Shown: positions 23,394 through 39,813 of the stretch, piece after piece
How the letters are laid out: each line of letters begins with the position of its first letter
How positions within the stretch are numbered: the stretch's first letter is position 1
Virus record (IMG/VR): IMGVR_UViG_3300020045_008410
Location: 1 to 45,768 of that record
Strand: one strand, 5' to 3'
Origin: a virus
Taxonomy: Duplodnaviria > Caudoviricetes
DNA length: 45,768 bases
The notes under the pieces: generated by a model
The model's database searches: none
The model's input: only the letters and a program-made list of their open reading frames with translations
What the model was told of the DNA's origin: nothing
Position numbers and translations under genes: made by a program

Positions 23394-25619
23394 TTAGAAT
23401 AATGTTAAAGTTGCGTTCTTTTCTGATACAAAGTCTTTATGATTTTTTGCGTTTAAAGCAAAATAACTTTCTTTAAGTTCTATCGAAATAGATTTTCTAT
23501 TCATTTTAATTCCGCAGCAACCTTCTGAACCAATACCACCAAACGGACTAAAAACCGTTTCTCCTTCATTTGAGTATAAATGTAATATTCTTTCAATGGT
23601 ATCTAACTGAAGTGGAGCAATATGTTTTTCATCATTTCCATCACGACCCGAACGATATTGCAAAGTTCTTGAGTAATCAATATCATACCAAACTGGCGAT
23701 GCATATTTTTGCCATAAATCAACTGGTAAATAATCTAATTTTGAACTATCAGTATCTTGATGTTTAATTGGCGTTTCGTTATCTCCTTCATTTCTGAAAA
23801 ATAAAATATAATCTGGAATTCCAACCCTCGACATAATACTGTCTTTTTTTATGGTTTTATGTAACAATCCTAATGCTTTTGTCCGTTGCATTTCGGTTAC
23901 TGGGTTTTTCCAAATTGTTGTGCGTGAATGATAAATAAATCCATTTTCTTGAAACCAATCAATTAACATTCCGCTAAAGTCACGCAATCCAATATATCCC
24001 TCTTTACCTTTTTGAATTGGCAAATCCATACAATGAATAGCGCACATTCTACCGATTTTTAGAACTCTTTTTAATTCTGGAATAAGAAATTTAAAATGTT
24101 GCTCAAATTGTTTGTAGTCGCTTACATTTCCCATGTCTTCTTCTTTATCTGAATAAACATAAAGCTCGGCAAATGGCGGAGAAAACACTACAATATCCGC
24201 ACAATTATCTGGTAACTTTTTAGTTTCTTGAACGCAATCCCCATTTATCAAATGATAGTTTTCTGTTTTAATTTCTTTGTTCATAATTTTTACTTTTGAT
24301 TTTGCTGTTTTATAGTTTGTTTCTGCTGAATATAAAGCCATTTCTTTGATTCTCTCAAAGTGTTGTTTTTCTTTTTCTAAAATAGTTTGCCTTACGTTGG
24401 TTTGACTTTCTGGAATAAGAATATGAACTATTACTTTGTTTTTTTGACCGAATCTATAACAACGTCTAACGGCTTGATAAAATGCTTCAAATTTAAAATC
24501 GTAACTCATAAAAACCATTTGACTACATTGTTGATAATTCATACCAAATGAAGCAATTGAAGTTTTGGTAATTAATGTTTTAAATTCATTGTTTGCAAAT
24601 CCGTTTAAATATTTTGCTTTGTATTCTGGTTTGTCAGAACCTTGAACATTTATTGCGTTTTGAAGTAATTTTGCAAGTGTATCCGTTTCGTTGTTTTTTA
24701 ATCCCCAAACAATTAATTGCTCATTGTTTTCTGTTGATATTTCATTTGTTTTTTCAACTCGTAAATCAAAACTTCTACTTAAATCTTTATGTAATTCTGT
24801 TGCTGAAACTGCTACATCTCCAAATAATGATTGACTTAAATTTTCAACTGGAATTATATGCTCAATGTATTCTATTTCTGGAAGTTCATATCCTGTTCCA
24901 TCAAATCCCAAAGTTTTAGGATTGTCAATTGCAATACTCCAACTTGCTACATATTTCCAAAATGCATCTTTTGCGTGTTTTCTTAATCTCCATTTTGAAG
25001 TTTCTCCACCATCGTGAACAAAGAACATTGCTAACATTTCTAAATAACTCATTCCTCCTAAAAATTCAGAATGTTGCCCTAATTCCATATGATCGTTTGG
25101 CGATGGTGTAGCTGTGCAGCATAATTTATAAGGAGTGTTTTTAAATAACTCTATTATCATTGATGAAATTTTACCATCACGTCCTTTTAAAATTGAGCTT
25201 TCATCTAAAACAATTCCAGAATAAATTGAAACGTCAATATTTTTTAATTGGTCATAATTTGCTATTTGAATAGATGCAAAATTAGGATTATTTATATCAT
25301 AACTCGCGTTTGTTATTTTGTATCCAAATTTAACTCCTTCTGCAATTGTTTGTTCTATAATTGCTAATGGTGCGAGTATTAAAACTGGTTTTTTTGTTTT
25401 AATATTAACTTGCTTTGACCATTCTATTTGACAAAAAGTTTTACCAAGACCGCAATCCAGAAATAAAGCAAATTTTCCTTTTTGTAATGCTACTTTTACG
25501 CTAAATTTTTGAAAGTCTTTTAATTGTTTGTTTAGTTTGTTTTCTGAAATTTCAAATCCGCTTTCAATAAATGTTTTCCTTTTTGTTTCTAAAAATGCTT
25601 CATAATCTAAATTACCCAT
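23394..25619 (-). CDS. SF2 helicase fused to amino (N4C/N6A) DNA methyltransferase
   Basis: LDCGLGKT, LDESS, TATP, QAVRRCYRFGQ; then GDC, FSPPF (motif IV), FSPFGGIGS (motif I) in beta-class order. Confidence 0.9.
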   Translation of the reverse strand: MGNLDYEAFLETKRKTFIESGFEISENKLNKQLKDFQKFSVKVALQKGKFALFLDCGLGKTFCQIEWSKQVNIKTKKPVLILAPLAIIEQTIAEGVKFGYKITNASYDINNPNFASIQIANYDQLKNIDVSIYSGIVLDESSILKGRDGKISSMIIELFKNTPYKLCCTATPSPNDHMELGQHSEFLGGMSYLEMLAMFFVHDGGETSKWRLRKHAKDAFWKYVASWSIAIDNPKTLGFDGTGYELPEIEYIEHIIPVENLSQSLFGDVAVSATELHKDLSRSFDLRVEKTNEISTENNEQLIVWGLKNNETDTLAKLLQNAINVQGSDKPEYKAKYLNGFANNEFKTLITKTSIASFGMNYQQCSQMVFMSYDFKFEAFYQAVRRCYRFGQKNKVIVHILIPESQTNVRQTILEKEKQHFERIKEMALYSAETNYKTAKSKVKIMNKEIKTENYHLINGDCVQETKKLPDNCADIVVFSPPFAELYVYSDKEEDMGNVSDYKQFEQHFKFLIPELKRVLKIGRMCAIHCMDLPIQKGKEGYIGLRDFSGMLIDWFQENGFIYHSRTTIWKNPVTEMQRTKALGLLHKTIKKDSIMSRVGIPDYILFFRNEGDNETPIKHQDTDSSKLDYLPVDLWQKYASPVWYDIDYSRTLQYRSGRDGNDEKHIAPLQLDTIERILHLYSNEGETVFSPFGGIGSEGCCGIKMNRKSISIELKESYFALNAKNHKDFVSEKNATLTLF

Positions 25620-26711: not shown

Positions 26712-27167
26712 TTACATATTAAGATAGTCTAGCATTGATTGACTTGAAATTGTTTCTTTTGGTAAATTTTCAATCATTTTTAACTTGTCTTTTTGAGTAT
26801 CCGAACGCATAAAATTTCTAGTTGTGGCTAACCATCCTTTTGATGTTCTTTTTTCATTTGGTTTCGTCAAACTCCAATCTTTAACGGCTTGAAAGTAATA
26901 AGTAATATCAACTCCCATTTGCTCTAAGTCTAAAAATTCTTTCTCAAAAATTCTCCAATTGCTAACGTTTGAGTTTTCAAAAGTAGTTTTTATTTCTGAA
27001 ATAGTTTCTTTTGTTCCAAATAACTCCGTTTGAATTGGTTTTTTTTTCTTTAAATTACGATTGTAAATTTGAATTGAAACCTTTGCTATCTGTTGAAGTT
27101 TTTTAAGCTCATCAATGCTCAAATGAGTTATTGAGTCATTCGATAAATCTATTGTTATTTTTTTCAT
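26712..27167 (-). CDS. putative replication protein
   Basis: YYFQAVKDWS...KGWLATTRNFMR resembles C-termini of phage replication initiators. Confidence 0.4.
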   Translation of the reverse strand: MKKITIDLSNDSITHLSIDELKKLQQIAKVSIQIYNRNLKKKKPIQTELFGTKETISEIKTTFENSNVSNWRIFEKEFLDLEQMGVDITYYFQAVKDWSLTKPNEKRTSKGWLATTRNFMRSDTQKDKLKMIENLPKETISSQSMLDYLNM

Positions 27168-27170
27168 TTT

Positions 27171-27974
27171 TTAAATTGGTAAATTCATTTTTTGCAATAT
27201 TGCTGTTGATACGTGAGTATATATTTCAGTTGTTTTACTTGATGAATGCCCTAAATGTTTTTGAATTATTCTTAAATCAGTATTTGCTTCTAATAATGCT
27301 GTTGCATTTGAATGTCTAAGTAAATGCATATGATATTCTTTTCCAATATATTTTTTAACAATTTGGTTGCAACTTCTATCGGAATATTGATTTGAAAATT
27401 GACCATTAAATAAGTATTCTTTTGGCTTATACTCTTTAAAATATATTCGTAATAAATCCAAAACTTTCGGACTTAATGGAACTATTCTATCTTTGTTTCC
27501 CTTAGAATTTCTAATCATAATAATCATTCTTTTACTATCAACATCAGTGATTAATAGATTTATAATTTCAGAAACTCGCATTCCAGTAGAATATGCTAAT
27601 GTCAATAATGCTTTATGCTTTGAGTTTTCAATTTTATCTAATTTACTTAACAGAAACTCCTTTTCAATTATTTTAGGTAACTTCTTTTCGGATCGAGGGT
27701 AATCGATGTATTTGAATTTCAAAGGCTGTTTAATAGTTTTAGAATAAAATAGTTTTAATGCCGATATAGCGTGGCACATTGAATTTCTAGTCTTAAATTG
27801 GAGTAACCACTGTTTAATTGACTGCTCATTTATTTTAGAAGGTTCTGTAAATTGACTATTAAAGTTTTTTAAAAATACTTCTACTTGACAACTATAATTT
27901 TTAATTGTGTTTTCAGAGTAATTTTTTAATCGTAAATCATTCCGATACATTTGTACATACTTAGGAATATTCAT
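27171..27974 (-). CDS. tyrosine recombinase (integron-integrase-like, no IntI insertion)
   Basis: LRLKNYSENTIKNY N-terminal SAM-like domain; catalytic set GMRVSE, KGNKDR, HLLRHS, LGH, TEIYTH. Confidence 0.93.
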   Translation of the reverse strand: MNIPKYVQMYRNDLRLKNYSENTIKNYSCQVEVFLKNFNSQFTEPSKINEQSIKQWLLQFKTRNSMCHAISALKLFYSKTIKQPLKFKYIDYPRSEKKLPKIIEKEFLLSKLDKIENSKHKALLTLAYSTGMRVSEIINLLITDVDSKRMIIMIRNSKGNKDRIVPLSPKVLDLLRIYFKEYKPKEYLFNGQFSNQYSDRSCNQIVKKYIGKEYHMHLLRHSNATALLEANTDLRIIQKHLGHSSSKTTEIYTHVSTAILQKMNLPI

Positions 27975-28032
27975 GGCTTATATATTGATTTTATTGGTTA
28001 TACATTTGATTTAGTACATATAGTAGTTATGC
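27975..28032 (+). promoter_or_regulatory. attI-like primary recombination site
   Basis: G^TTATGC core at 28026-28032, 52 bp upstream of the recombinase start, with no preceding hairpin arm; imperfect direct repeats ATATATTGATT/ATACATTTGATT. Confidence 0.7.
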
Positions 28033-28245
28033 CTCATTATAATCACATTCGGATAAAACTGGAAGTTCAGGATGATAACCATTATGAAGTAATACTTGTT
28101 TATATCTATTACAAATGTGCCTATCTTTATTTTTTTGCTTATTTTGTTCTTCTTCTGTAATATTTAGAAAAGAGCAGTTCTTACAAAAACGAGGCATAAC
28201 ATCGTGTATAAGAGATTGCTTAGATTGGTCTGTATCTTTCGACAT
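28027..28245 (-). CDS. cassette 1 ORF, small Cys-rich protein
   Basis: 72 aa, CKNC...C...C; starts in the attC1 loop, TAA stop lies in the attI core. Confidence 0.7.
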   Translation of the reverse strand: MSKDTDQSKQSLIHDVMPRFCKNCSFLNITEEEQNKQKNKDRHICNRYKQVLLHNGYHPELPVLSECDYNEA

Positions 28246-28328
28246 AATTTTTAAATTTAAAGATTAGTAATATTTTGGAGGTATCGGGTTCAATCGGCGC
28301 AACCTCCCATACACGCCGTCCGTTAGTG
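28194..28328 (+). repeat. attC-like site 1 (135 bp)
   Basis: GCATAAC-AT-CGTGTATAAGAGATTGC ... GCAACCTCCCATACACG-CCGTCC-GTTAGTG. Confidence 0.85.
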
Positions 28329-28334
28329 GCAAGC

Positions 28335-28817
28335 TTAACAAACGTTAGCGATAAACTGACCACTTTCTAATTCTATATGTTTACAACCTTTTTGATTTTT
28401 CAACTCATCAATCCATAAATCCCAATTATTTGAAATAAGATTTATAAAAGCATCAGGAGAACCCCTTTCTTTATATCTTTTTAAATATTCTTCTTTCAAT
28501 TCCTTTTTTGGATAAACTAAAGTAAATTCTAATCCGTTTTCTAATAAAGCATCTCTAACCTCTTTATGGCTTGAAATGAAAATACGTGCGTAACCTTCTG
28601 ATATTTTTTCCTTTATATGCTCAATATAGTTTTGCGGAAAATTAGTCTTATCAAACTTACTGCTATCGCTATCTGTTGCGAATCCTTGTGGCATATATCC
28701 TGATTCAGTATTTGTGTAATAAGATTTTCCAGTACCAGGAAAACCAGCCACTAACAGCGGTTTTGAGCTATTGCCGTTTTTGGCTTCATTTGATGATTGT
28801 TTTGTACTTGTGTTCAT
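28335..28817 (-). CDS. cassette 2 ORF, P-loop nucleotide-kinase-like protein
   Basis: LLVAGFPGTGKS, DSDSS.F, YLKRYKERG; likely start MNTSTKQ at 28817 (160 aa) rather than 28907, which would cross the cassette boundary. Confidence 0.75.
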   Translation of the reverse strand: MNTSTKQSSNEAKNGNSSKPLLVAGFPGTGKSYYTNTESGYMPQGFATDSDSSKFDKTNFPQNYIEHIKEKISEGYARIFISSHKEVRDALLENGLEFTLVYPKKELKEEYLKRYKERGSPDAFINLISNNWDLWIDELKNQKGCKHIELESGQFIANVC

Positions 28818-28881
28818 AGTTTTTAAAATTAAAGTTGGTCTTGTATTTTCGGCAACAAGACAAAGCCACAAATCGTTATGC
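28749..28881 (+). repeat. attC-like site 2 (133 bp)
   Basis: CACTAAC-AGC-GGTTTTG..ATTGCCG ... CGGCAAC..CAAAGCC-ACAAATC-GTTATGC. Confidence 0.8.
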
Positions 28882-28916
28882 CTAATACTACGATGAATAT
28901 TAGGCATAAATAAAAA

Positions 28917-29288
28917 TTAGTCTAAAATGTAATCTTTAGTTCCAAAAACTTCTTGCCCTTCTAATAATTCAGCTAAATCATTTCTAACATAAGCAGAAGT
29001 ATGAGGATGATGATTTTCTCCTAAATATTTCATCAATGGTCTTGCAGATTCTTCAAATGAACTTCCTTCTTTTTGTTTAAAAGGGTTTTCAATTCCTAAT
29101 TGATTAGGTTGATTTTCGGTGTCAAATACCGTTTGAATTAGATTGGCTATTTCATCAGCAACGCTAGAAATATTTTCTCCTTCAATAGCTTTAAAAGAGT
29201 CTCCTAACTCACCACAAGACCCCTTACCATAACACGTTATAGTGTTATTGTTTAATAATTCGATAATTTTGTCTTTAATTTGTTTCAT
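28917..29288 (-). CDS. cassette 3 ORF, hypothetical protein
   Basis: 123 aa; C-terminal RPLMKYLGENHHPHT...DYILD domain. Confidence 0.7.
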   Translation of the reverse strand: MKQIKDKIIELLNNNTITCYGKGSCGELGDSFKAIEGENISSVADEIANLIQTVFDTENQPNQLGIENPFKQKEGSSFEESARPLMKYLGENHHPHTSAYVRNDLAELLEGQEVFGTKDYILD

Positions 29289-29338
29289 TTTATTTTTATT
29301 TAATTGATTAATATTTTAATTAATTTTTGCCGTACTAG

Positions 29339-29417
29339 GCATAACAGCAATTACACCTCACCAGCCGAAAGCAACTTTGTCTATAGGCTGGCGTTGTGTA
29401 GTTGCAGGACGTTAGCC
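29339..29417 (+). repeat. attC-like site 3 (79 bp)
   Basis: GCATAAC-A-GCAATTACAC..CCAGCC ... GGCTGG..GTGTAGTTGC-AGGAC-GTTAGCC. Confidence 0.85.
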
Positions 29418-29423
29418 GTCAGT

Positions 29424-29720
29424 TTACGGAACATCAAAAGTAACCGCTTCTCCGTGTTGATATAAATTACCTCTGTGTTTGCAAACTCCTCTACCACTTT
29501 TTGATTCATAATAAGAACAAATTGATTTTTTACATTCTTGTCTTTCTCCAACTTCTCCTTGATGACCGCACCATATATAGTCAACATTGTCATTATCTGG
29601 AATAGCTTCTACCAATGTTACTTTTTTTAATCCTTCTAATTTTGCATCGTTTAATCTATCAGATAAAGGATAACAACTTGTATCGTCAATACTTTCAAAA
29701 TATAATTTTTCTTTTGCCAT
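29424..29720 (-). CDS. cassette 4 ORF, putative zinc-binding protein
   Basis: likely ATG at 29720 (MAKEKLYF, 98 aa); WCGH...CKKSIC...CKH. Confidence 0.7.
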   Translation of the reverse strand: MAKEKLYFESIDDTSCYPLSDRLNDAKLEGLKKVTLVEAIPDNDNVDYIWCGHQGEVGERQECKKSICSYYESKSGRGVCKHRGNLYQHGEAVTFDVP

Positions 29721-29744
29721 TATTTCTAATTTTAAAAACCGAAC

Positions 29745-29879
29745 GGCTAACAAGTGTTTTACGCCTTTGTGGGTTTAGGTTTAATATTAAGTTTGTTTTG
29801 CATCAGTTTAATTTCGTGATAATAGGAAAGTTTAGTGCTTATTTAACCACAACGGACGTAAAGCACTCGAACGTTATTC
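29745..29879 (+). repeat. attC-like site 4 (135 bp)
   Basis: GGCTAAC-A-AGTGTTTTACGCCTTTGTGG ... CCACAACGGACGTAAAGCACT-CGAAC-GTTATTC. Confidence 0.85.
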
Positions 29880-30653
29880 ATTAATTAATTCAATCGCTTT
29901 TTTTACTCTTTCTTCTAAAAATTGTTTGTCTTCTAAAGGAATTTCAAAACGAATAATATTTAAGTTTTCAATTCCGCTTTCTTTGTAAATAAAAGGAAGT
30001 TCTCCTTCTTTTGCTCTTGCTACAAACCAGTAACTTTCATCTAATGAATTGTTATATTCGTGAATTAACTCAAGTTGTTCGTAGTACGGCATAAATACAA
30101 TTAGTTCTCCATATTTAGCATTTTTAATACAAGCATTTGAAACAATTTGCCAGTAGTATTTTTCTCCTTCATTTGAATTCTCTCTAATCTTTTGAATTAT
30201 AACATTACCATCAATATTTTTCTTTTTGGTAACGGTTAATCCATCAAAATCATAAAGCTCTGAAACTAAATTGTAAAATGCTTTTCTAGTCAACGGGCAT
30301 TTAGTTTCCGTAATTGTATCTGTTACTTTTTTCTTTAAAACTTCTTTATTTTTAGTTCCATCTGGACTTCCCACCCATTCTGGATATTTTGGATGAACAA
30401 ATGTAACGTCTGAATGAAATTCGTATTCTAGTCCTAATAAATCGTGGACAATATTTTCACAAAGTTTTCCCCAACTAAAAGCTAAAACTTCAACTTTATT
30501 TTCAAGTGATTGCTTAAAAAAACGTTCAATAATACATTCTTGAACGTATGTATAAAATGGTGCGCCTGGTTCTCCTTTTGCACGTCCGTTTTTTGTCAAT
30601 GCTACGATTTCACTTGATGTTATTCTTCCTACTCTTACGTTTGATAGTGCCAT
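29874..30653 (-). CDS. YqaJ/lambda-exonuclease-like recombination nuclease
   Basis: RVGRITSSE, WGKLCE, GSPDG, ETKCP, YYWQ motifs. Confidence 0.88.
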   Translation of the reverse strand: MALSNVRVGRITSSEIVALTKNGRAKGEPGAPFYTYVQECIIERFFKQSLENKVEVLAFSWGKLCENIVHDLLGLEYEFHSDVTFVHPKYPEWVGSPDGTKNKEVLKKKVTDTITETKCPLTRKAFYNLVSELYDFDGLTVTKKKNIDGNVIIQKIRENSNEGEKYYWQIVSNACIKNAKYGELIVFMPYYEQLELIHEYNNSLDESYWFVARAKEGELPFIYKESGIENLNIIRFEIPLEDKQFLEERVKKAIELINE

Positions 30654-30654
30654 T

Positions 30655-31308
30655 TTAATTTTGTTTTTGATTGTTTTTAATAATTTCTAACTCGTTTAAT
30701 AATTTATTGTAACTGCTAACCTCTTCATTTTCGATAATTCTATTGTAATGTGGATAATCTTTTGATGGAACAAATTGTTCAAATTCTGCAAACAATTCTT
30801 TGATTTTTTTTAGTTTTTGTGGATTTGTCAATTTTGATGTGTTTGAAATTGAATCTATTCTATTTAAGTCGGAACCAAATAATATTCCGAAATGATCACA
30901 AGCATCTTTTATTGCATTTGATTTTGCATTTGGTAATGATGCAGCAACTGAATAAGGAACAAATATATCGTTTTGTTTTTTTGGTTCGTCTGCTCCAACT
31001 CCATCGTGATAATACCAATTGTAAGGACTTTCTAATTCTCTGTAATGAACTCGAACCGATACCGATGTAGCATTAAAAATTTCTTTAGTTTCCAAAACTT
31101 CAATTCGATAATTAAATCCGAAAATTTGACGTAAAAGATACTCTACTTTATCTATTGGAATGTACCTATAACTTGATATTTCTGGATGTTGCTTAATCCA
31201 ACTTAATGGAGGATTTTCGTTTAAAAGTTCAAATAATTCTGAATTTGTAGAAATACTTTTAAGTCTTTTTAAAAGGTCTTTTTCTTCCATTTTATTTTTC
31301 GCTTTCAA
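30655..31308 (-). CDS. single-strand annealing protein (Rad52/Sak-like)
   Basis: YIPIDKVEYLLRQIFG...SVSVRV...HDGVG...AKSNAIKDACDHFGILFGSDL; paired with exonuclease. Confidence 0.75.
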   Translation of the reverse strand: MKAKNKMEEKDLLKRLKSISTNSELFELLNENPPLSWIKQHPEISSYRYIPIDKVEYLLRQIFGFNYRIEVLETKEIFNATSVSVRVHYRELESPYNWYYHDGVGADEPKKQNDIFVPYSVAASLPNAKSNAIKDACDHFGILFGSDLNRIDSISNTSKLTNPQKLKKIKELFAEFEQFVPSKDYPHYNRIIENEEVSSYNKLLNELEIIKNNQKQN

Positions 31309-31618
31309 TAATTGTTACTAAATTCCAAATTTCGCACTCTAAAATTGTTTTAATTTGGTTTAACCGATTGATTCCCTTTATTTCTTGCTTTTGGTAAGAT
31401 TCCCAATTTTGATTGATAACTTTCTCTTCTTTACTCAAAAATATTACGTTTAAGTGCAAATCTAATTGTTTGTTTCCATTCTTAATCCATTGAGATAATT
31501 GTTGCGGAAATATGCCTAATTCGTCCGCAATCGACTTAATCGACTTTGGTTTTAAACTTGGATTTTTCTCATTCCAAATTTTAATAGCTTCTTTGATTGT
31601 TAACTTGAATTTTTTCAT
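31292..31618 (-). CDS. HTH DNA-binding protein
   Basis: SIKSIADELGIFPQQLSQW. Confidence 0.65.
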   Translation of the reverse strand: MKKFKLTIKEAIKIWNEKNPSLKPKSIKSIADELGIFPQQLSQWIKNGNKQLDLHLNVIFLSKEEKVINQNWESYQKQEIKGINRLNQIKTILECEIWNLVTIIESEK

Positions 31619-31619
31619 C

Positions 31620-31772
31620 TTATTTTTTATTTTTTTTTGCTTGGTTGTAATATTCGTTTGTTACCTCTGTAACTTCTCCTTTTTTTGTTTGAACAAAACT
31701 TTTAAATCCGTTATGAGTTTTGAAAATAGTTCTTCCATCTTTTAATTCTAAAACTTGCTCTTTTCTTTCCAT
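31620..31772 (-). CDS. small hypothetical protein (not in ORF track)
   Basis: read manually: MERKEQVLELKDGRTIFKTHNG...KNKK*, 50 aa. Confidence 0.5.
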   Translation of the reverse strand: MERKEQVLELKDGRTIFKTHNGFKSFVQTKKGEVTEVTNEYYNQAKKNKK

Positions 31773-32120
31773 CTTGATTTATTTTTGAGTTATACAATTT
31801 GTTTTATTTTTCTGTTTTTGAAAATGTTCAATTTTCTATAATTAATGCCAATTTTTAATTTTTAAATATATTGAATATCCTAAACAAATTAATCCTAATA
31901 AAGCTAGTAAAATTACTGATGTGTATACTATAACGCTTCCTATATCCATAATCAATTTTTTTTTCTTAATACTCTTGTTTTTCCATCTTCAAGTAGAAAA
32001 TAGGAAAAGCCATCATTTATCTTTTTGGTTTCTTGCTTTTTTTCAATTTCTAAAGATTTTTTTGCTGAAATCTTTGCCTCTTTTTCTTCTTGAAAAATTG
32101 TTAATCCGGGTAATTTTTTC

Positions 32121-32303
32121 TTAGTTGCCATAATAAGTATTCGTTTCTTCTATTGTTTTTTCAAATTGTTTATCGTTTAAATCCGTTTGAATTTTGCACA
32201 TTCTAATTTTTAATGGTTTTTTTGAATAAAAATTAGTTGGAGTTGATGCAATTTTCAATAATCGAATTTGATTGTTAACTTGTGCTATTTCTTGAGTTCC
32301 CAT
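32121..32303 (-). CDS. hypothetical early protein
   Basis: 60 aa, tightly packed. Confidence 0.45.
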   Translation of the reverse strand: MGTQEIAQVNNQIRLLKIASTPTNFYSKKPLKIRMCKIQTDLNDKQFEKTIEETNTYYGN

Positions 32304-32306
32304 AAC

Positions 32307-32495
32307 TTAAATTTTGAAGTTGTTATTGTAGTAATTCTGCAATCTAGCTTTCATTTTTTCGTTAACTTGAATTCTTTCTTTGTACCAATCCATTGATAAA
32401 ACCATATCTCTTTTAGCTCGATCAATTGAAAATTGACATAAATCGATTAATTCTAAAACCCTAATTGCTCTTTGATGTTTTTCTAATTGTGTCAT
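32307..32495 (-). CDS. hypothetical early protein
   Basis: 62 aa, tightly packed. Confidence 0.5.
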   Translation of the reverse strand: MTQLEKHQRAIRVLELIDLCQFSIDRAKRDMVLSMDWYKERIQVNEKMKARLQNYYNNNFKI

Positions 32496-32497
32496 AA

Positions 32498-32767
32498 TTA
32501 ATCGTTATTAAATGTTTTGCCATCGTACCAAAATTTAGCTCCAGAATTATTTACAATTGTAACTTCATTTGTAATTCCTCTTTGTCTAAAAAAAGTAGGT
32601 TTTAATAAATTAAATTTAACTACTAAATCTTTATTTCTAGTTTCTGCAAATTGAACTCTCAAAAATTCTCTTTTTACACGAATCCAAGCTTCTTTTAAAG
32701 CTTCTGAAAATGTAACTTCAAATTGTCTAAAAATTAACCAAGCGGTTTTTAAAACTTGTGATTTCAT
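32498..32767 (-). CDS. hypothetical early protein
   Basis: KSQVLKTAW.IFR....TFSEALKEAW motif; first gene after promoter. Confidence 0.6.
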   Translation of the reverse strand: MKSQVLKTAWLIFRQFEVTFSEALKEAWIRVKREFLRVQFAETRNKDLVVKFNLLKPTFFRQRGITNEVTIVNNSGAKFWYDGKTFNND

Positions 32768-32788
32768 AATAAAAGTATTTTTGTTTTG

Positions 32789-32853
32789 TGTTTTTGTTTT
32801 GTCAAAAGTAATAAATTTATTTTATACAAAATAAATATTTTTTATTTATTTTT
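32789..32853 (-). promoter_or_regulatory. early promoter, copy A of ~65-bp direct repeat
   Basis: TACTTTTG -7 box at 32803-32810; duplicated at 18863-18927. Confidence 0.75.
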
Positions 32854-32872
32854 AAAATTATTTTTTAATCAT

Positions 32873-32901
32873 AAAAAAACCGCCAAAAAGAAAGGCGGTT
32901 T
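32873..32901 (-). terminator. intrinsic terminator
   Basis: AAACCGCC/GGCGGTTT stem plus 7-T tail. Confidence 0.75.
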
Positions 32902-32964
32902 AAACAAACAAAACAAAATAGCCTTTAGGGTTCGGCTTCTGCAAATATAGAATTAATTTCAAAT

Positions 32965-32998
32965 AAAAAAACCTCTTTAAATTAATAAAGAGGTTTTT
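32965..32998. terminator. terminator after lipoprotein gene
   Basis: AAAAACCTCTTTA/TAAAGAGGTTTTT inverted repeat. Confidence 0.7.
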
Positions 32999-33011
32999 GA
33001 TTTTTTATATA

Positions 33012-33386
33012 TTACCTGCAAGGTGGTGGAGGTGGCGATGTAAGTGTAATTCCGCCATGTTCACTATATTGAGGCGCAACTATAACATTACCTGTGCTTG
33101 AACAATAACTAGCCCAATATGTATTTCCGCTAGAGCATCCCATTACAAATAAATAATTTCCATTACCTTCATCTTCCCTTGACTTAACCCAACATCTGCA
33201 AGTTTCACAAGTTGTAGTCTGTCCTGTCGCTACAAAAGTCAATACAATTTCGGTAATTCCGTCAATTGTTTCTTTAGGAATTTCATCTTTACTCAATAGA
33301 TTTTCTTCTTTTTGAACCGATGGTTCAGAATTACTACATGCTGTCAATAAAAAAATAGACAACAAAATAACTAAGATTTTTTTCAT
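33012..33386 (-). CDS. Cys-rich lipoprotein (moron)
   Basis: MKK + hydrophobic core + lipobox LTA|C; six further Cys; PPPPPC tail; own -7 box at 33418-33425. Confidence 0.75.
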   Translation of the reverse strand: MKKILVILLSIFLLTACSNSEPSVQKEENLLSKDEIPKETIDGITEIVLTFVATGQTTTCETCRCWVKSREDEGNGNYLFVMGCSSGNTYWASYCSSTGNVIVAPQYSEHGGITLTSPPPPPCR

Positions 33387-33445
33387 TTTTAATATGTTTT
33401 AATTAATAATAAGAATTCAAATGTAATTATTTTTTTGGTTAAACT

Positions 33446-33478
33446 AAAAAAAGCGGTTAAAATTAATTAACCGCTTTT
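33446..33478. terminator. terminator ending the lysis operon
   Basis: AAAAGCGGTTAA/TTAACCGCTTTT inverted repeat. Confidence 0.75.
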
Positions 33479-33508
33479 CCTAACTTAACTCTATTTTTAA
33501 AAATCTAA

Positions 33509-33925
33509 CTACTTCAAAAGTAATACTTTTATTCCAATATATGCAACAGCTCCCCAAAATCCGTATTTATAAATATTTTTTTTTGTATTGTTTCGGTTGT
33601 AAATCTTTTCCCAATTGATAATAATTCCGTTTAGATCTTTAGTTTCAGATTCTTTAAATGAATAGGCTTTTTTTAGCTTTGTTAAACTATTTTTCAATTC
33701 TGAACTCTCAATACTATAAATGCTATCTTTTTGCTTAAAAAGGCTTATTTGCATTTCGTTTACACTATCTTTTTTTATTAAATAGTCCAACTTTTCTAAA
33801 TCCTTAATTCCTTTTTTTGATTGTATCGAATCTAGTACTACTTTTTTCGATTGGCTCATACCTTGAATCCCAATAAGACTGCATATCAGAAATACTAAAA
33901 TTTTCAACATTTTTAATTTTTTCAT
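33509..33925 (-). CDS. putative spanin-like outer component
   Basis: signal-peptide-like N-terminus, coiled coil, hydrophobic C-terminus; overlaps upstream gene by 122 bp. Confidence 0.45.
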   Translation of the reverse strand: MKKLKMLKILVFLICSLIGIQGMSQSKKVVLDSIQSKKGIKDLEKLDYLIKKDSVNEMQISLFKQKDSIYSIESSELKNSLTKLKKAYSFKESETKDLNGIIINWEKIYNRNNTKKNIYKYGFWGAVAYIGIKVLLLK

Positions 33926-34205
33926 TGTATTGTTTTTTAAAGGTTTGGTAAACTTGTGTTTGATTGTCTAAAAGCAATTGAATGCTATCTCTGCTTTCGG
34001 CTGTTTTTTCGGCTTTAATTTCACTTAACTCCGATTGATGTTTGTATTCTTTTGCCAACGCTTCATTAACCGCTGCATCTTTTTGACTTTCAATAATTTT
34101 ATTTTCTAAATTTCCTGTTCTATTAAAATAAAGCGAACTAATGAAAATTAAAATACAACCGCAAATAATGTAAGGAATGTACTTTTTATATTTTTCTGGT
34201 ATCAT
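33804..34205 (-). CDS. putative inner-membrane spanin
   Basis: N-terminal TM followed by coiled coil, directly after endolysin. Confidence 0.55.
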   Translation of the reverse strand: MIPEKYKKYIPYIICGCILIFISSLYFNRTGNLENKIIESQKDAAVNEALAKEYKHQSELSEIKAEKTAESRDSIQLLLDNQTQVYQTFKKQYNEKIKNVENFSISDMQSYWDSRYEPIEKSSTRFDTIKKRN

Positions 34206-34207
34206 AA

Positions 34208-34663
34208 TTAAAAATTTAAGTATGTTGTTTTTCCTGCTATTTTTCTAGCAATTAAAATTTGTTTTTTATTCCCTGTTTTAGCAAATGAAACGTGTACCCA
34301 ATCTGGATTTGCAGTTTTTCCAAATTCCCAAATTAATTGATCAAACTCTAAATTATTTTTTATCCAATGGAAAACTTCTGCATTTGTAATACTTGTACCG
34401 TCCATATCAATATCCATTGCTTGACCTTTTGAATGTTGTGAAGTTTGAGAACCTCCAACGGCTTTATTCAATTCTTTTGACCGGTAACCACTACTGATGT
34501 GTATCGGAATTCCAAAATGTTCTCTAATTGGCTGGAAAACGTTTTCGGCTAGTAATAGCATATTTTCTATATGCTCTTTAGTTGGTTTGTTTTCAATTCC
34601 TTTTCGCTTTGCGCTTTCGGAACTTAGCATTTCGGCTAATGATAAATTTTTAGATAGTTGCAT
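34208..34663 (-). CDS. endolysin, peptidase M15 family
   Basis: ISSGYRS..LN.AVGGS.TSQH..GQAMDI...FDQLIWE...WVHVS. Confidence 0.92.
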   Translation of the reverse strand: MQLSKNLSLAEMLSSESAKRKGIENKPTKEHIENMLLLAENVFQPIREHFGIPIHISSGYRSKELNKAVGGSQTSQHSKGQAMDIDMDGTSITNAEVFHWIKNNLEFDQLIWEFGKTANPDWVHVSFAKTGNKKQILIARKIAGKTTYLNF

Positions 34664-34689
34664 TGATTGTTTGTTTTTAAATTAGTAAT

Positions 34690-35043
34690 TTATTTTTGAT
34701 TATTCTTTTTGAATGAACTAAAAAGTAAGTTTAGTAATCCTGTTAAAAGCGTGTCAATATCCCATTTGTAAATTATAAACTCTGCTATTTTTTCTCCAGA
34801 CATAGCAATTATAGCTATAAACATTGGTGTCATATTTTCGCTAGAATATTGTAAAACAATTGGATATGACAAATAAGTTATTCCAATTCCAACTACATAA
34901 CTTAAAATTGCTCTCAATGGCGTAATTCTTTCTTTGCTCATCATCGTTGCTAATTTTATCGATACTCCGCTAAATGCTGGAAAAAATATTTTACAAAAAA
35001 ACTCATATACCTGGTCCAAAAAGTTGTGATTTTCTCCTAACAT
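34690..35043 (-). CDS. putative holin
   Basis: about 3 hydrophobic segments, basic C-terminus, adjacent to endolysin. Confidence 0.6.
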   Translation of the reverse strand: MLGENHNFLDQVYEFFCKIFFPAFSGVSIKLATMMSKERITPLRAILSYVVGIGITYLSYPIVLQYSSENMTPMFIAIIAMSGEKIAEFIIYKWDIDTLLTGLLNLLFSSFKKNNQK

Positions 35044-35338
35044 AACGAAATATTGCTATTAATATTAATACTATTGTGACTACAATTTCATTTATTCCTA
35101 ATTCTAAAGGATTGAAAAATAATTCATCAAATAAATTATTTATTGTCAATCCAAAAAGTAAAAAAGTAAAAAAGTTTTTTACATAAGAATATAAATACAA
35201 ACTTACTACAAATATTAAAATAGATTCAGAAATGTAGTAAAAATGTTTTGGGAATATAAAATCGAAATTTCGCACCAGTACAGAAAGTACTAATGCGAAA
35301 CTTAAAATAATGTTTAATATTTTAGCTTTAACGGTCAT
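35003..35338 (-). CDS. multi-pass membrane protein
   Basis: about 4 hydrophobic segments; ATG start at 35338 preferred over the ORF-track start. Confidence 0.6.
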   Translation of the reverse strand: MTVKAKILNIILSFALVLSVLVRNFDFIFPKHFYYISESILIFVVSLYLYSYVKNFFTFLLFGLTINNLFDELFFNPLELGINEIVVTIVLILIAIFRYVRRKSQLFGPGI

Positions 35339-35468
35339 TTGGTCTACCTCCAACTATTAAAACGGTTGTTGTTTCATTGGTTAATTTTTCTACCAATTCT
35401 AACGCACTTTTCATTTGCTCTGGCGTTGCTTCTTTGTCGAATGCAATCACAATTCTTTGAGTAATCAT
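35328..35468 (-). CDS. small hypothetical protein (not in ORF track)
   Basis: read manually: MITQRIVIAFDKEATPEQMKSALELVEKL...GGRPNDR*, 46 aa, fills the gap exactly. Confidence 0.55.
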   Translation of the reverse strand: MITQRIVIAFDKEATPEQMKSALELVEKLTNETTTVLIVGGRPNDR

Positions 35469-35473
35469 AATAT

Positions 35474-35698
35474 TTAGTTTTTGTTATTTAATTGTTCCGC
35501 AATTGTTTCATCTTTTTTAGCTGTACTTCTTGAACTCCCAAAATAGTAGCCTATTACGCTAGACATCAATCCAACAATAGCTATTTTAATATCATTTGTT
35601 GAATTATTGAAAGCTAAAATATATAACCCACCAATAATTATAATCAATGCGATAATTCCTTGAATGTTCGCTTTTAAAAATGCTTCTTTTGTACTCAT
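35474..35698 (-). CDS. two-TM holin-like protein
   Basis: two hydrophobic helices and VIGYYFGSSRS motif; -7 box at 35713-35720. Confidence 0.6.
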   Translation of the reverse strand: MSTKEAFLKANIQGIIALIIIIGGLYILAFNNSTNDIKIAIVGLMSSVIGYYFGSSRSTAKKDETIAEQLNNKN

Positions 35699-35735
35699 TG
35701 GTTTTTATTTTACAAATTTATACTTATTCTTTTAC

Positions 35736-36008
35736 TCAAGAATATTTTTGTCTTATTTCTTGTCTTTGTGTTAAAATTTCACTAGGCACTTCTTGACCAG
35801 TTTCCAAAAATCGTGTAAAATACCAATCAGTAGGGCGTAATTCTTGGTATTGTTTGATTTTATTAGATATGTTTTTTTCTTGATTATACGATTCTAATAA
35901 TTCCGATTCGTTAAATTCAAACTCTTCAAACTTTACGCCTTTAGGAATTGATTTTTTATTAGTTGTTTCAATCGTTTGATTTTCTAATTCGTATCTATAT
36001 TTTATCAT
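35736..36008 (-). CDS. tail fibre assembly-like protein
   Basis: L..TDWY..R..ETG.EVP.EIL..RQ..R motif, follows the fibre gene. Confidence 0.65.
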   Translation of the reverse strand: MIKYRYELENQTIETTNKKSIPKGVKFEEFEFNESELLESYNQEKNISNKIKQYQELRPTDWYFTRFLETGQEVPSEILTQRQEIRQKYS

Positions 36009-37777
36009 CTTAAAATTCTTTTATAAGTGTGTGCTAAATAATCAGCGTGAACTAAATTACCACTAAATGTACTTGTATTATAAGCTTGTATTAAGTTTTT
36101 TAAAGTTGCACTTGATGAAGGTATATTAGTTGTTAAGTTGACCTCAAATAAAATAGTGTTTGAATTATTAGCATAAACTTTATAATTAATACTACTCATA
36201 TTTTCGCAATTAATTACTAATCGATACCAAGTATTTGCTGTTAGTGTAAACGCGCTTGATTCAGTTGCTGAAAATCCATCTACATTTCTAGCTTTTAATT
36301 GGTCACCTGCTATTTTAAAAATACAAGCCGAAAACTCATTTAAAGAAAATATACCATCTAACAATCCACATTTAATAATAGTGTTAGAATCTATTGTACT
36401 AGGCATTTTAATGATTGATGTATGTATTAAATTTGTTGCAGTAAAATCGCTAGAATAAGAAACATATCCACTATTTGCACTGCCACTACTTTTAAAAATC
36501 CAAATACCTTTATTATATTGTATATTTTCTGAACTATAATCATAACTTCCGCCACCTACACTTGTACTGGTAAAAGTTCCAGTGTTATTTAAAAAATCTG
36601 TTTTTTCGGTATTCTCGATATAAAGTAAACCATCGCCACCGCCAGCATTTGCTATAACAAATCCTTTATCTACTAAATCTCTGTCATTTGTAAATGTTTG
36701 AGCCGAACCGTATCTAATAATTCTGTTAGGCTTCCAATGGTCTTCTCCTGCTCCTACTTCAAATTTTAAATAACTGTCAGGCGTTTGAATACCGCCGTTA
36801 GTATCGATAATTATATCGGTAACTAATCTTTTAGCTGTTAAAGTACCACCCGAAGTAATAGTTGTATTTTGATTTGATTCAACTGAAAATATAATAGCTG
36901 TATCATCGCCATAAACAGGATTGTCAATAACAAGTGGACCACTCATCGTATCGCCTGTTTTTAAAACAAAGTCGCCTCCTCCAATAACTGAAACTGCCCA
37001 ACGTTCTAAACCTCCTAGTAATTCTATTTTTTTAAGATAAAATTTTGCATCATGTGGAACTATTGGATTTCCTAAAAATTCAATTCCAGTATCAAATATA
37101 ATTTCTCTTGTAAATTCTGAATCATTAAATCCAATTATTTCGGTATTATCTTGAAGTCCTAAAGGCAACATTAAATCCAAATCAGATTTTAAAACTAAAA
37201 ACTTATTATCATCAGATTGAGTAATTGTGTAAACTGCTCCGTAATTGATAATTTTTACTTCTCTAGTTCCTGTTTGCGGAATATTTGGCTCTTCAATTTG
37301 TGTTCCGAAAATATTAAAAACTGCTAACAATAACGTATTTGGAGGTGTTTGCGGTTGCTCAGCTATTGTGTCACTTTCAAATCCCTCTATTAAATAAATT
37401 TCATTATTAGTGTCAACTACTGCAATATCAATTCTATAAAAATCTGTTGTTGCTGCTGAAATTGTTAAATCAATAATTTCTGTATTTGCGTAATTTAATC
37501 CGTTTATTGTCCATTCATAACCTAAAGAAAAACTAAAAGTATCATCTTCTCTTGAAATAGTTCCAAACGCTGTAATCTTATCATTTAGTAAATTAAATCC
37601 GTTTAATGCTTCAGTTAAATTAAACTTTTCAGTTTCTAAACTTGTTTCGTTGTGAACTGGAACATATTTAGTTCCATCGGTTGCTACTGGCAACTGAAAT
37701 ATTTTCTTTGAATTTAAAATGATTTGATTTTTCCATTCGCTCAAATCATTTAATCTTTGTATTATAATGTCAAACAT
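36005..37777 (-). CDS. tail fibre/receptor-binding protein
   Basis: 590 aa mosaic; FVLKTGDTMSGPL and DLVDKGFV fibre motifs, GGG hinges, beta-rich C-terminal domain. Confidence 0.7.
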   Translation of the reverse strand: MFDIIIQRLNDLSEWKNQIILNSKKIFQLPVATDGTKYVPVHNETSLETEKFNLTEALNGFNLLNDKITAFGTISREDDTFSFSLGYEWTINGLNYANTEIIDLTISAATTDFYRIDIAVVDTNNEIYLIEGFESDTIAEQPQTPPNTLLLAVFNIFGTQIEEPNIPQTGTREVKIINYGAVYTITQSDDNKFLVLKSDLDLMLPLGLQDNTEIIGFNDSEFTREIIFDTGIEFLGNPIVPHDAKFYLKKIELLGGLERWAVSVIGGGDFVLKTGDTMSGPLVIDNPVYGDDTAIIFSVESNQNTTITSGGTLTAKRLVTDIIIDTNGGIQTPDSYLKFEVGAGEDHWKPNRIIRYGSAQTFTNDRDLVDKGFVIANAGGGDGLLYIENTEKTDFLNNTGTFTSTSVGGGSYDYSSENIQYNKGIWIFKSSGSANSGYVSYSSDFTATNLIHTSIIKMPSTIDSNTIIKCGLLDGIFSLNEFSACIFKIAGDQLKARNVDGFSATESSAFTLTANTWYRLVINCENMSSINYKVYANNSNTILFEVNLTTNIPSSSATLKNLIQAYNTSTFSGNLVHADYLAHTYKRILR

Positions 37778-37788
37778 TTTTATAATTT

Positions 37789-39810
37789 TTATAGGTTTCT
37801 AATATATTCCGCATCGTTATCTCCTTGTAACAATCCAATTAAAGGCGTATTTGAGCTTATTGTTTGTCCGCTTACAGTTCCGCTATTCCAAACATCACCA
37901 GATTCTAGTAATTTGGCTTTTAAAGTATAAAAATTACTTAAACCTTGTCTAGTTATTTCGGGGTTCTCACTCAATTTATATGAAATATTTTCTATAAATA
38001 AATTATCGTGTTTCAAAGCTAAAATAATTTTTCTAACCATTCCAGTTGTTAAATTGAAAACTTCAAAATCTATACCGTTGTAATTTACTGCATCAATTGA
38101 AATAACTTGAGTATCTGTTTTTTGGTTTTCAATACCACCATCATTTACTAAGGTATTTACATTACAAAAATTTAATCTATTTTTCATTTGAATACCACTA
38201 TAAAAATAAATGTCAGTATTTTTTGAATTGTACCAAACTATTTCTGCAGTTCTTGGGTGTCTTTCTTTTACTTGTATTTTTTCATAAGCATAAAATATAT
38301 CTGGAAAATTAATATCAGTTTCGGTTTGGTATAATCTCAATCCGATGCTAAATGTTTTGTTTAAAAAATCATTCATATTAACTTGAAACTGCCAAATGTT
38401 AAAAATATCTCTATTGTAAATAGTTTGAATTGTTCCGTTAATTGTATCTGGAATCGAAATATTTACATTAAACAATAAGCTCCTTTGACCGTTATCATCC
38501 AATCTAATATCGGCTATTTGATAAATTCCGTATGCAGTTTCTACCCAAGTCCCAACTATTCCGTATTCTGGTAAAAGTCCGTTTAATTCATAAGTCCCTG
38601 TTATCGTTGTTGTATCGTATTCGTATAAATTACCTGTAATGAACAAAACCGCTAATCTGTTTTCAAACGAATAATAAATACAATCTCGTTTGTCTTCAAT
38701 TTGGATGTTGTTAACGATTTTATTTGCGGTTAATTCAGTTAAATTTCCATCAGTATCTTTTGTGAATACTTCTATGTTCTCATAGCTTGTTTTTATTTGC
38801 TCAGTAATTATATCACAACTTTGGAATAATTGAATATATCTATTTGCTATTGGCAAATTTTCTTCACAACTTAAAGTGTTAAATACATTTTTGTAGTTTC
38901 CACAATTTTGATGTTGAACTCGTCTAACCGATCGTAAAGAATTACTTTCTGAAATGTAATAAAAAGGTGCTGCGACGTTACCATTTGTATTTCCGTTATT
39001 AGTTACGTTAATGGTTTTTATACAACCGTAAACGTCCTTTAAATAAACCGTATAATTTCCTAAATCTAAATCGGCAAATATTGATTCAGTTTGGTAGTCT
39101 GTACCATTAATCGAATACAATAACCCTAAACTTTCTAAATTGTCTTGAAATACATTAACATTCAATGTGTTTTCGCTAAAAAATGCATTAACGTTTAAAA
39201 TATTCAAAGCATCATCAAAACCAAAATTTATTAATGTTGCACCAGATTGCTGTAATGCATAACTAAAATTTCTTTGATATTCAATTGAAAATTTGTCGGG
39301 TATTCTGGTCCCTAAATTTGTATTTAAATCGGTGTTTTTAATATTGTAAATTCCAGTATCAAAACCAAAAATAGGAATTGCATTTGCACTTGATTGATTG
39401 GTTAAAAATACAGTTTCACAAGGCGTTTCAGTTTTAAAAGAAACATATTCGAAATCCGAAATCATTTTCCAAAATGAGATTAAACTTGGTCCAGTTCCTT
39501 GAGTAATTGTAACTTCGATAGTATTTCCTATTCTCGCATAGGTTATAGTAGTAGAAAATCCACCAACAAAACCCGAAAATGCATACAAACTATTTAAAAA
39601 AGACAAAGTATTGTTAATAGTATCGTTTAACGTTGCACCTAGTCCTATTTGATTTGGATTTACGTTTGCGCCATTTTTGTAACTTAAGTTTATTTCAGTT
39701 TCTCCATTTCCGTAAATTACTTTATTTGAATTGATATAAATTTCATATTCAAAGTGAGCATCTACGATTGGTTGTTGCTTAAAGTCTAATATTATTTTTT
39801 TAACTGCCAT
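37789..39810 (-). CDS. tail/baseplate protein
   Basis: 673 aa beta-rich; YSINGTDYQ....F.DL..GNYTVY.KD..GC (SprB-like repeat); synteny. Confidence 0.6.
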   Translation of the reverse strand: MAVKKIILDFKQQPIVDAHFEYEIYINSNKVIYGNGETEINLSYKNGANVNPNQIGLGATLNDTINNTLSFLNSLYAFSGFVGGFSTTITYARIGNTIEVTITQGTGPSLISFWKMISDFEYVSFKTETPCETVFLTNQSSANAIPIFGFDTGIYNIKNTDLNTNLGTRIPDKFSIEYQRNFSYALQQSGATLINFGFDDALNILNVNAFFSENTLNVNVFQDNLESLGLLYSINGTDYQTESIFADLDLGNYTVYLKDVYGCIKTINVTNNGNTNGNVAAPFYYISESNSLRSVRRVQHQNCGNYKNVFNTLSCEENLPIANRYIQLFQSCDIITEQIKTSYENIEVFTKDTDGNLTELTANKIVNNIQIEDKRDCIYYSFENRLAVLFITGNLYEYDTTTITGTYELNGLLPEYGIVGTWVETAYGIYQIADIRLDDNGQRSLLFNVNISIPDTINGTIQTIYNRDIFNIWQFQVNMNDFLNKTFSIGLRLYQTETDINFPDIFYAYEKIQVKERHPRTAEIVWYNSKNTDIYFYSGIQMKNRLNFCNVNTLVNDGGIENQKTDTQVISIDAVNYNGIDFEVFNLTTGMVRKIILALKHDNLFIENISYKLSENPEITRQGLSNFYTLKAKLLESGDVWNSGTVSGQTISSNTPLIGLLQGDNDAEYIRNL

Positions 39811-39813
39811 ATC

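Follow-up and report, generated by a model that had tools for sequence, protein, structure and literature searches.

In classical integrons, such as those of IntI1 and of Vibrio cholerae IntI4 (PDB 2a3v), a tyrosine recombinase lies beside an attI site and points away from the array relative to the polarity of that site. Their hairpin sites have AAC/GTT cores, a conserved G after the AAC and a more stable bottom strand, and the single-gene cassettes, whose ends pair in the circle, are joined by G^TT crossover. Here we describe a row of hairpin-plus-gene units with the same properties, adjoining a short tyrosine recombinase gene and an attI-like site, in IMG/VR record IMGVR_UViG_3300020045_008410, a complete Caudoviricetes virus record of 45,768 bases (CheckV 100%; hereafter the window). 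The row is likely a phage-native, integron-like gene-capture platform run by the adjacent recombinase, whose catalytic role is presumed from comparison. Unlike classical integrons, the phage enzyme is ∼48 residues shorter between its catalytic motifs and has no I2 insertion; the sites carry a 2–4-nucleotide (nt) bulge plus a C.A mismatch, and their outer stem spans 12 bp and includes a fixed G.T pair; open reading frames (ORFs) run antisense, with the hairpin before the gene and the recombinase as last gene of the same strand; and hairpins are exchanged between genes. The feature itself is confirmed, and by every comparative test it is integron-like; it stands outside the integrons as now defined in lacking I2 and single extrahelical bases and in its gene polarity.

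Integrons and attC clusters in phages have already been published. Qi et al. 2023 (PMC9892861; this and the other papers are cited from their accessible parts) reported three complete integrons, one In0 and 17 clusters of attC sites lacking integron-integrases (CALINs) in 10,705 phage genomes. As in the window's family, attC-type sites and methyltransferase cassettes occur there in virulent phages; each complete integron there is a captured one of Vibrio, Shewanella or class 1 type and has a true IntI, and no cognate phage recombinase, attI motif or reversed polarity is described in those parts of the report. The platform also resembles XerC/D acting on folded CTX phage DNA, as in integrative mobile elements exploiting Xer (IMEX; PMC7790495), in that an I2-less enzyme would recombine a folded single strand; unlike IMEX, where host XerCD acts at dif and the whole element integrates, it has one phage-encoded enzyme beside a growing array of variable sites. 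The I2 insertion is not fully conserved in an integron-like recombinase subgroup, yet is held to be essential (PMC8138268), IntegronFinder requires the IntI-specific domain (10.1101/2022.02.06.479319), and complete integrons are recorded as only rare in Bacteroidetes (PMC9024848). The literature searched, which left out most subscription papers, yielded no account of a cassette platform lacking I2, either in Bacteroidota or in their phages. The suggestion in an earlier sequence-only reading of this DNA that such an arrangement had not been characterised in phages stands, within that literature, for this platform and not for phage integrons in general.

Organization of the locus

The features of the platform are as follows.

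27171-27974, minus strand: short tyrosine recombinase, 267 amino acids (aa); SAM_4 plus catalytic Phage_integrase domain (Pfam), no IntI I2 insertion
27975-28028, minus strand: recombinase leader with an attI-like docking half-site, whose GTT core is at 28026-28028 (plus strand)
28026/28027: predicted crossover at the attI-like site, G^TT
28027-28322, minus strand: cassette 1, 296 bp, presumably the newest; hairpin 1 plus 169-bp body
28027-28245, minus strand: ORF1, 72 aa, no known function; ATG inside hairpin 1, stop formed by the TAA of the attI core
28197-28325, minus strand: attC-like hairpin 1; TAAC at 28197, GTTA at 28322; minus strand equivalent to the bottom strand
28323-28875, minus strand: cassette 2, 553 bp; hairpin 2 plus 428-bp body
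28335-28817, minus strand: ORF2, 160 aa, P-loop nucleotide-kinase-like (phrog_4182); start in hairpin loop
28752-28878, minus strand: attC-like hairpin 2; TAAC at 28752, GTTA at 28875
28876-29411, minus strand: cassette 3, 536 bp; hairpin 3 plus 465-bp body
28917-29288, minus strand: ORF3, 123 aa, no known function; in cassette 3
29342-29414, minus strand: attC-like hairpin 3, short form; TAAC at 29342, GTTA at 29411
29412-29873, minus strand: cassette 4, 462 bp, presumably the oldest; hairpin 4 plus 335-bp body
29424-29720, minus strand: ORF4, 98 aa, Cys-rich, no known function; in cassette 4
29748-29876, minus strand: attC-like hairpin 4; TAAC at 29748, GTTA at 29873; outer TAA is the stop codon of the YqaJ-like exonuclease gene (29874-30653)

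A detector for this hairpin frame, applied to the whole window, returned exactly four sites, all on the minus strand (scores 14.1–18.7) and all where the sequence-only reading had placed them; the best plus-strand score was 9.5 and the best in six dinucleotide shuffles 11.0. That reading had also held that the outer left arm of each hairpin matches the start of its own cassette, and the matches (10/10, 9/9, 13/14 and 9/9) as well as the cassette lengths of 296, 553, 536 and 462 bp were borne out. Over 12 nt, the four sites match the flank of their own cassette at 10, 9, 10 and 9 positions, versus 3, 2, 3 and 5 for the flank now present. Folding on both strands, which had been proposed as a check, gave −25.1, −20.2, −26.8 and −27.3 kcal/mol for the modelled circle junctions on the minus strand, each being weaker on the plus strand, and −17.6, −14.3, −19.3 and −16.2 kcal/mol for hairpins 1–4 paired in present order on the minus strand. 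Arm duplex energies were used here; unconstrained whole-site folding was poor for the long AT-rich loops. The minus strand, which is the coding strand, reads AAC-G...T-GTT, as does the aadA7 attC bottom strand printed in the supplement of PMC9892861. A possible bulge is present in hairpins 1 and 3 only, and Rfam held no family for the hairpins (sole match mir-241, E 0.51). The cassette genes point towards the recombinase with the hairpin ahead of each gene, and the attI-like AAC sits 54 nt ahead of the recombinase ATG. The GTT core in ORF2 codes for part of the strand preceding the Walker A motif, and the end frame of cassette 3 is common to four other cassettes.

The recombinase

The recombinase ORF matches Phage_integrase (PF00589, E 7.7e-36) and SAM_4, and its catalytic residues R133, K158, H217, R220, H243 and Y252 are intact and invariant in 13/13 homologues. 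It falls below the cut-off of every NCBIfam model, scoring 181.9 of 220 for the XerA-type NF040815, 164.6/335 for XerC and 158.2/330 for XerD. The integron integrase model TIGR02249 gave 139.6 bits against a cut-off of 265, with profile positions 179–251 left without a match. Alignment to IntI4 falls into two blocks, separated by 33 residues in the phage enzyme versus 81 in IntI4, and a gap at the I2 position recurs against Vibrio and Shewanella IntIs. Judged from these alignments, the I2 insertion (I2 helix, patch III region) is absent. Having no IntI-specific insertion, the phage recombinase is therefore not an integron integrase by current definition. The cassette-platform interpretation of the sequence-only reading is supported in part, namely in its cassettes, G^TT crossover, attI-like end and variable content; it overlooked the missing insertion of the enzyme, the antisense ORFs and the occurrence of the site family in Bacteroidota chromosomal arrays.

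The predicted structure (predicted local distance difference test 79, predicted template modelling score 0.55) resembles XerA and IntI4 to nearly the same degree (E 1e-14 and 2e-14), and archaeal XerA is the best match in both sequence and fold. No recombinase above 35% identity was found among the 40 matches listed from cultured phages. A prophage integrase would be expected to be kept across its phage clade and to accompany lysogeny control; the gene was not found in 5/5 relatives searched, four of them at least 90% complete, and no Peptidase_S24 repressor was found in G000.

Two observations concern the gene itself. Between a related phage locus (L071 7950-8800) and window positions 27171-28028, the DNA for the C-terminal part of the recombinase has 81% identity; the N-terminal part is different, as is the attI spacing (46 vs 54 nt). 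This suggests that the recombinase is mosaic, and that its binding domain and attI may travel together. In L040 and L041, a recombinase with an internal stop codon adjoins a one-cassette array.

Site anatomy across phage units

For pairing statistics, 194 of 217 phage units were kept, each with 5 or more of 7 end positions matching. Pairing between the body ends reaches 95–100% over 6 bp and 73% at the seventh; beyond it an invariant T faces G in 75%, followed by four further pairs at 58–85%. Because the two ends of each gene body pair over ∼12 bp, a site is completed only if the unit is closed into a circle, and since the outer stem comes wholly from the body ends and the inner stem wholly from the hairpin, any combination of the two gives a complete site. 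Across 189 sites the flank of the own cassette matches at 5.97/8 positions, against 2.84/8 (n=190) for the present flank.

Extra bases on the AAC arm number 2, 3 or 4 in 22, 60 and 107 of 192 sites, and pairing of the arms is ungapped in 189/192. Among the 107 sites with four extra bases, a G.T pair follows the AAC in 106, a C.A mismatch is found in 65 and a second, deeper G.T pair in 76; most other stem positions pair in 79–100% with several pair types, i.e. with compensatory pairing. The coding strand folds more stably in 189/192 sites. The sites thus share AAC/GTT cores and the bottom-strand folding bias with attC hairpins, and have a 2–4-nt bulge on the AAC arm rather than single extrahelical bases opposite the cut AAC. 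From this anatomy we infer two pseudo-symmetric binding boxes around a 6–7-nt spacer, the cut strand being the bulged one. In 64/194 units the hairpin loop contains the start of the longest ORF, preceded by a run rich in A; this is also so for ORF1 and ORF2 in the window.

Linkage of enzyme, attI motif and array among phages

A scan of viral contigs confirmed 267 relatives of the recombinase, of which the best 80 were kept. All 53 viral homologue loci with at least 1.5 kb of upstream sequence carry 1–15 sites there; by placement, 211 sites lie upstream on the same strand, five downstream and four on the other strand (nine in the other three positions together). A motif starting with the AAC core is found 43–58 nt before the predicted recombinase start in 60/68 phage loci versus 4/1169 control windows, the motif having been derived from these same loci, so that a putative attI-like site stands beside the enzyme. 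At this site the end of the last cassette matches at least 6 of 9 bases in 55/59 arrays. Scanning the collection with the 15-nt motif returned mostly chance matches, 93/120 being without array and without recombinase. The 65 genes downstream of the recombinases fall in 46 families, so that the genome surroundings of the platform are diverse. A quick tree, left unrooted, sets 19 phage enzymes apart from 21 bacterial, plasmid and IntI rows with a Shimodaira-Hasegawa-like approximate likelihood ratio (SH-aLRT) of 100; the tree has no XerC/D outgroup and therefore no order of origin is claimed.

The site family extends to the cultured, virulent Polaribacter phage P12002L, where the detector finds eight sites on the gene strand at 31–41 kb, beyond attC1 at 30056, and where no integrase is annotated. 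P12002L_attC1, which belongs to the window's site family, is the one site of Qi et al. that IntI1 did not recombine (PMC9892861). With at least nine sites (L340:14503-14624, 30000-40950), far more than annotated, this phage is a ready experimental model.

Mobility and reassortment

The corresponding locus differs among close relatives of the window phage. In L345 (46.7 kb, complete) the exonuclease gene is joined directly to the 151-aa gene that follows the platform in the window, in L344 an 80-aa ORF takes the place of the platform, and in L071 the locus holds nine other hairpin units and a recombinase of 65% identity. The first hairpin starts on the exonuclease stop codon in both the window phage and L071, and on the stop of the upstream gene in 14/39 arrays. 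Two pairs of units (L042_1 and L095_3; L056_2 and L085_2) are 100% identical in hairpin and body between different phages, the identity ending at the AAC cores. The body of window cassette 2 recurs at 72–92% identity in 8 of the 13 closest loci with equivalent ends, each time behind a different upstream hairpin (one pair being a duplicate), and an ORF3 protein relative (60% identical) is found in an L071 cassette. In sequencing run X1, a near-identical copy of the cassette 4 body stands on a low-depth contig; the match begins exactly at 29411, and the arm ahead of it belongs to a different hairpin. A second contig carries hairpin 4 with other flanks on both sides. The identical units, the cassette-2 body family and the run X1 contigs together argue that the main mobile unit is the upstream hairpin plus gene. 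Relatives with invariant content, or with breakpoints away from the core, would have spoken against cassettes; content varies and the borders fall exactly on the coding strand's AAC core, a comparative pattern that points to mobility by G^TT crossover.

Two other units were considered. That of a gene plus its downstream hairpin was rejected, the downstream neighbours in the cassette-2 family differing except in the duplicate pair L317/L318. The whole platform as one self-mobile cassette is likewise unsupported: a C follows only 4/80 recombinase stops, and empty relatives read TAA-T.

Reassortment was assessed in 238 units from 69 loci, with a background of 0.52 ± 0.10. Of 52 hairpin pairs with at least 85% identity, 47 sit on unrelated bodies, and 16/24 body pairs with at least 80% identity have different hairpins (e.g. 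body 98%/hairpin 60%, body 95%/hairpin 57%); window hairpin 1 has a 94% identical counterpart in L059, where the body is unrelated. Such separate reassortment of hairpins and gene bodies suggests cuts on both strands. Top-strand recombination at GTT would give such hairpin swaps, and deletion of extrahelical bases favours top-strand recombination in IntI1 assays (PMC5027507). Unrelated genes share end frames in 127 pairs versus 29 expected, which points to replacement of genes within existing frames.

Bacterial counterparts and gene polarity

A scan yielded at least 77 chromosomal loci (L107-L183), mostly from Bacteroidota, with recombinases 39–47% identical to the phage enzyme. Of the 44 loci with enough DNA, 39 have sites of this family downstream of the recombinase, on the strand opposite to it, and 25 have two or more. 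Arrays were seen in Flaviramulus, Flavobacterium saccharophilum, Arundinibacter, Winogradskyella, Maribacter and Nitrospirae metagenome-assembled genomes (MAGs), and were not found described in print. They share the site family, the pairing signature and the I2-less enzyme with the phage platform, but their recombinase points into the array, their genes have the canonical orientation and most of their enzymes are longer (274–558 aa as called). In bacteria 58/61 genes occupy the top strand, the arrangement of classical cassettes, versus 190/194 phage genes on the bottom-equivalent strand; the canonical order of a top-strand ORF followed by attC, with Pc at attI, is thus not what the phage units show. 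The possibility that phage cassettes are bacterial bodies inverted between cores was rejected, since the T(-8)/G(+8) signature is asymmetric and points the same way in phage and bacterial units.

With the polarity reversed, cassettes and recombinase would share a strand with the early operon of the phage. Of 45 segments of the record, 44 are G-rich on the minus strand. As a rule, a G-rich strand marks the lagging-strand template. If this applies here, the cut strand would be exposed in replication, favouring turnover; coding bias could also cause the skew.

Among the 77 bacterial contigs, 26 end within 700 nt after the recombinase versus three before it, as expected if repeated sites break assemblies. 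Relatives were also seen on plasmids. A shortened 'TnpF/xerD' gene beside tet(X3) on the Acinetobacter plasmid NZ_CP104735 (L306:2967-4988), among the closest plasmid relatives at 46% identity, groups with the Bacteroidota array recombinases in the quick tree, with an attI-like GTT just before tet(X3); this last gene may derive from a Bacteroidota-type array. The tet(X3) unit was not called a cassette, its ends matching at only 4 of 7 positions. The Chryseobacterium plasmid NZ_CP041688 (L307:5749-11550) carries a bacterial-type array with five hairpins downstream of the recombinase. On a Clostridium plasmid (L308:5971-8008), where site detection was not run, related recombinases (40%) directly precede IS91-family transposases, not arrays.

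Mechanism and alternative explanations

We propose that the coding (bottom-equivalent) strand would fold as a single strand into a stem with two recombinase boxes, a 6–7-nt spacer and a 2–4-nt bulge. The recombinase would cut at AA^C, excising hairpin-plus-gene circles, which would be inserted at the attI-like site beside its own gene, with replication resolving the junction. An upstream early promoter would read cassettes and recombinase, the hairpin loops often giving the translation start. Without I2 and the classical extrahelical bases, the enzyme probably sometimes cuts the other core (GTT), which would produce hairpin swaps and new complete cassettes. The likely pay-off is fast turnover of accessory genes, above all DNA-modifying enzymes.

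Several points weigh against this interpretation. I2 is reported to be necessary for cassette capture by IntI1, although XerC recombines the folded CTX strand without it (PMC7790495), and the mechanism does not explain how a lethal second strand exchange is avoided without I2. The same sites stand beside related host-chromosome enzymes and in recombinase-less phages such as P12002L, so host enzymes could act. The viral loci are not independent, many sharing one sample prefix and some being duplicates, and their counts therefore overstate independence; 21/24 body pairs come from one seven-member family, the pairing statistics come from preselected units, and the search of five relatives for the recombinase had no positive control in the same run. 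No circle junction was seen in one DNA run, for which contigs only were used (5% of words) and contigs cannot show absence.

A wider version of the proposal is put forward only tentatively. In it, Bacteroidota phages would run their own I2-less integron lineage, a living counterpart of the pre-I2 ancestor, whose enzyme would act on both strands of the folded site; hairpins and bodies would thereby assort independently, and phage genes would be made into new cassettes at the DNA level. Reversed polarity would expose the cut strand in replication and keep turnover high.

Among the alternatives, the one that survives best, though we consider it unlikely, is that the cassettes are real and are moved in trans by a short recombinase encoded in the host chromosome, with the phage enzyme either dispensable or devoted to another task. 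The chromosomal enzymes found beside the same sites in 39/44 loci, the recombinase-less arrays of P12002L and L188, and the lack of any recombinase seen within 2.5 kb in the cassette-2 loci are all compatible with it. It sits poorly with a phage enzyme that forms its own group, keeps its catalytic residues and nearly always follows attI motif and array whatever gene lies downstream. Complete relatives without the array are also without the gene, and the recombinase is therefore not a life-cycle integrase or resolvase.

Less probable again is an enzyme acting on double-stranded cores in the manner of Xer, in which the unit would be a body with terminal inverted repeats and the hairpin would have mainly an RNA role, as spacer, translation start or processing site. 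An I2-less enzyme as XerA-like as IntI4-like would suit this scheme, as would the separate assortment of bodies and hairpins and the 64/194 ORFs that start inside the hairpin. Homology-dependent double-strand exchange by tyrosine recombinases would not tolerate freely varying spacer and arm sequences, and here these vary freely with pairing retained. The G.T wobbles stay on the same strand in bacteria, where it is the non-coding one; the fold is therefore not tied to mRNA.

Passive capture, in which the phage would have taken up part of an integron-like array from a host chromosome like the Vibrio prophages of Qi et al., is very improbable. The site family, its length (∼124 nt) and some end frames are common to phages and Bacteroidota chromosomes, but both gene polarity and recombinase position are opposite, and opposite polarity together with the separate enzyme group means that the platform is not a captured host fragment. 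The cargo is moreover phage-type: distant ORF2 homologues are ordinary phage genes, with an adjacent hairpin in 0/13 examined (of 15). The chromosomal matches listed included no close recombinase except in three MAG contigs at 61–71%. As for the hairpins being conserved linkers between genes exchanged by phage homologous recombination, with the recombinase a bystander, the array's place directly behind a YqaJ-like exonuclease and the end frames common to unrelated genes would fit, but exchanges end at a 3–4-nt core without flanking homology, and neither the pairing of body ends hundreds of bases apart nor the fixed attI motif is explained, so that we give this reading hardly any weight.

If the platform's enzyme is active, I2 is not required for integron-style cassette shuffling, and surveys that demand it (IntegronFinder; PMC9024848) miss a large system common to Bacteroidota and their phages. 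The platform makes the origin of integron integrases testable, a viral origin having been speculated (PMC7790495). For cassette genesis, a rule that depends on mRNA polarity is disfavoured by antisense genes joined to start codons lying in hairpins. The system also bears on how phages renew anti-restriction genes, and its testability rests on one small gene and a 50–130-nt site.

Cassette cargo

Within the window, ORF2 has a T5-like homologue annotated as putative polynucleotide kinase; ORF1 had no Pfam or PHROG match, and atlas searches gave no function for ORF3. From other phages, 74 cassette proteins of at least 110 aa were compared with Pfam and 21 had matches: 13 DNA methyltransferases, two Mom, two PAPS-reductase-like, two YopX, one GNAT and one HD. 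DNA methyltransferases or Mom-family proteins thus make up 15/74 of these longer cassette proteins.

Genome setting and host

Nearly all genes of the window lie on the minus strand, terminase, portal and a virion structural or tape-measure protein among them. The platform sits in the replication/recombination region, with the YqaJ-like exonuclease gene on one side and the 151-aa gene (26712-27167) on the other. The bacterial relatives of the recombinase and of the hairpin sites point to a Flavobacteriia-type bacterium of the Bacteroidota as the probable host. Promoter scans were at chance level (39 vs 37.5; 102 vs 92) and therefore no Pc-like promoter is claimed; no RNA run was listed as holding the window sequence. 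Elsewhere in the window, positions 23394-25619 encode a 741-aa protein, kept in relatives, in which an SNF2-like helicase is fused to an N6/N4 DNA methylase. A perfect AT-rich hairpin with T-tails on both strands (32967-32998), lying in the gap that separates the late genes from the early region, is likely a terminator.

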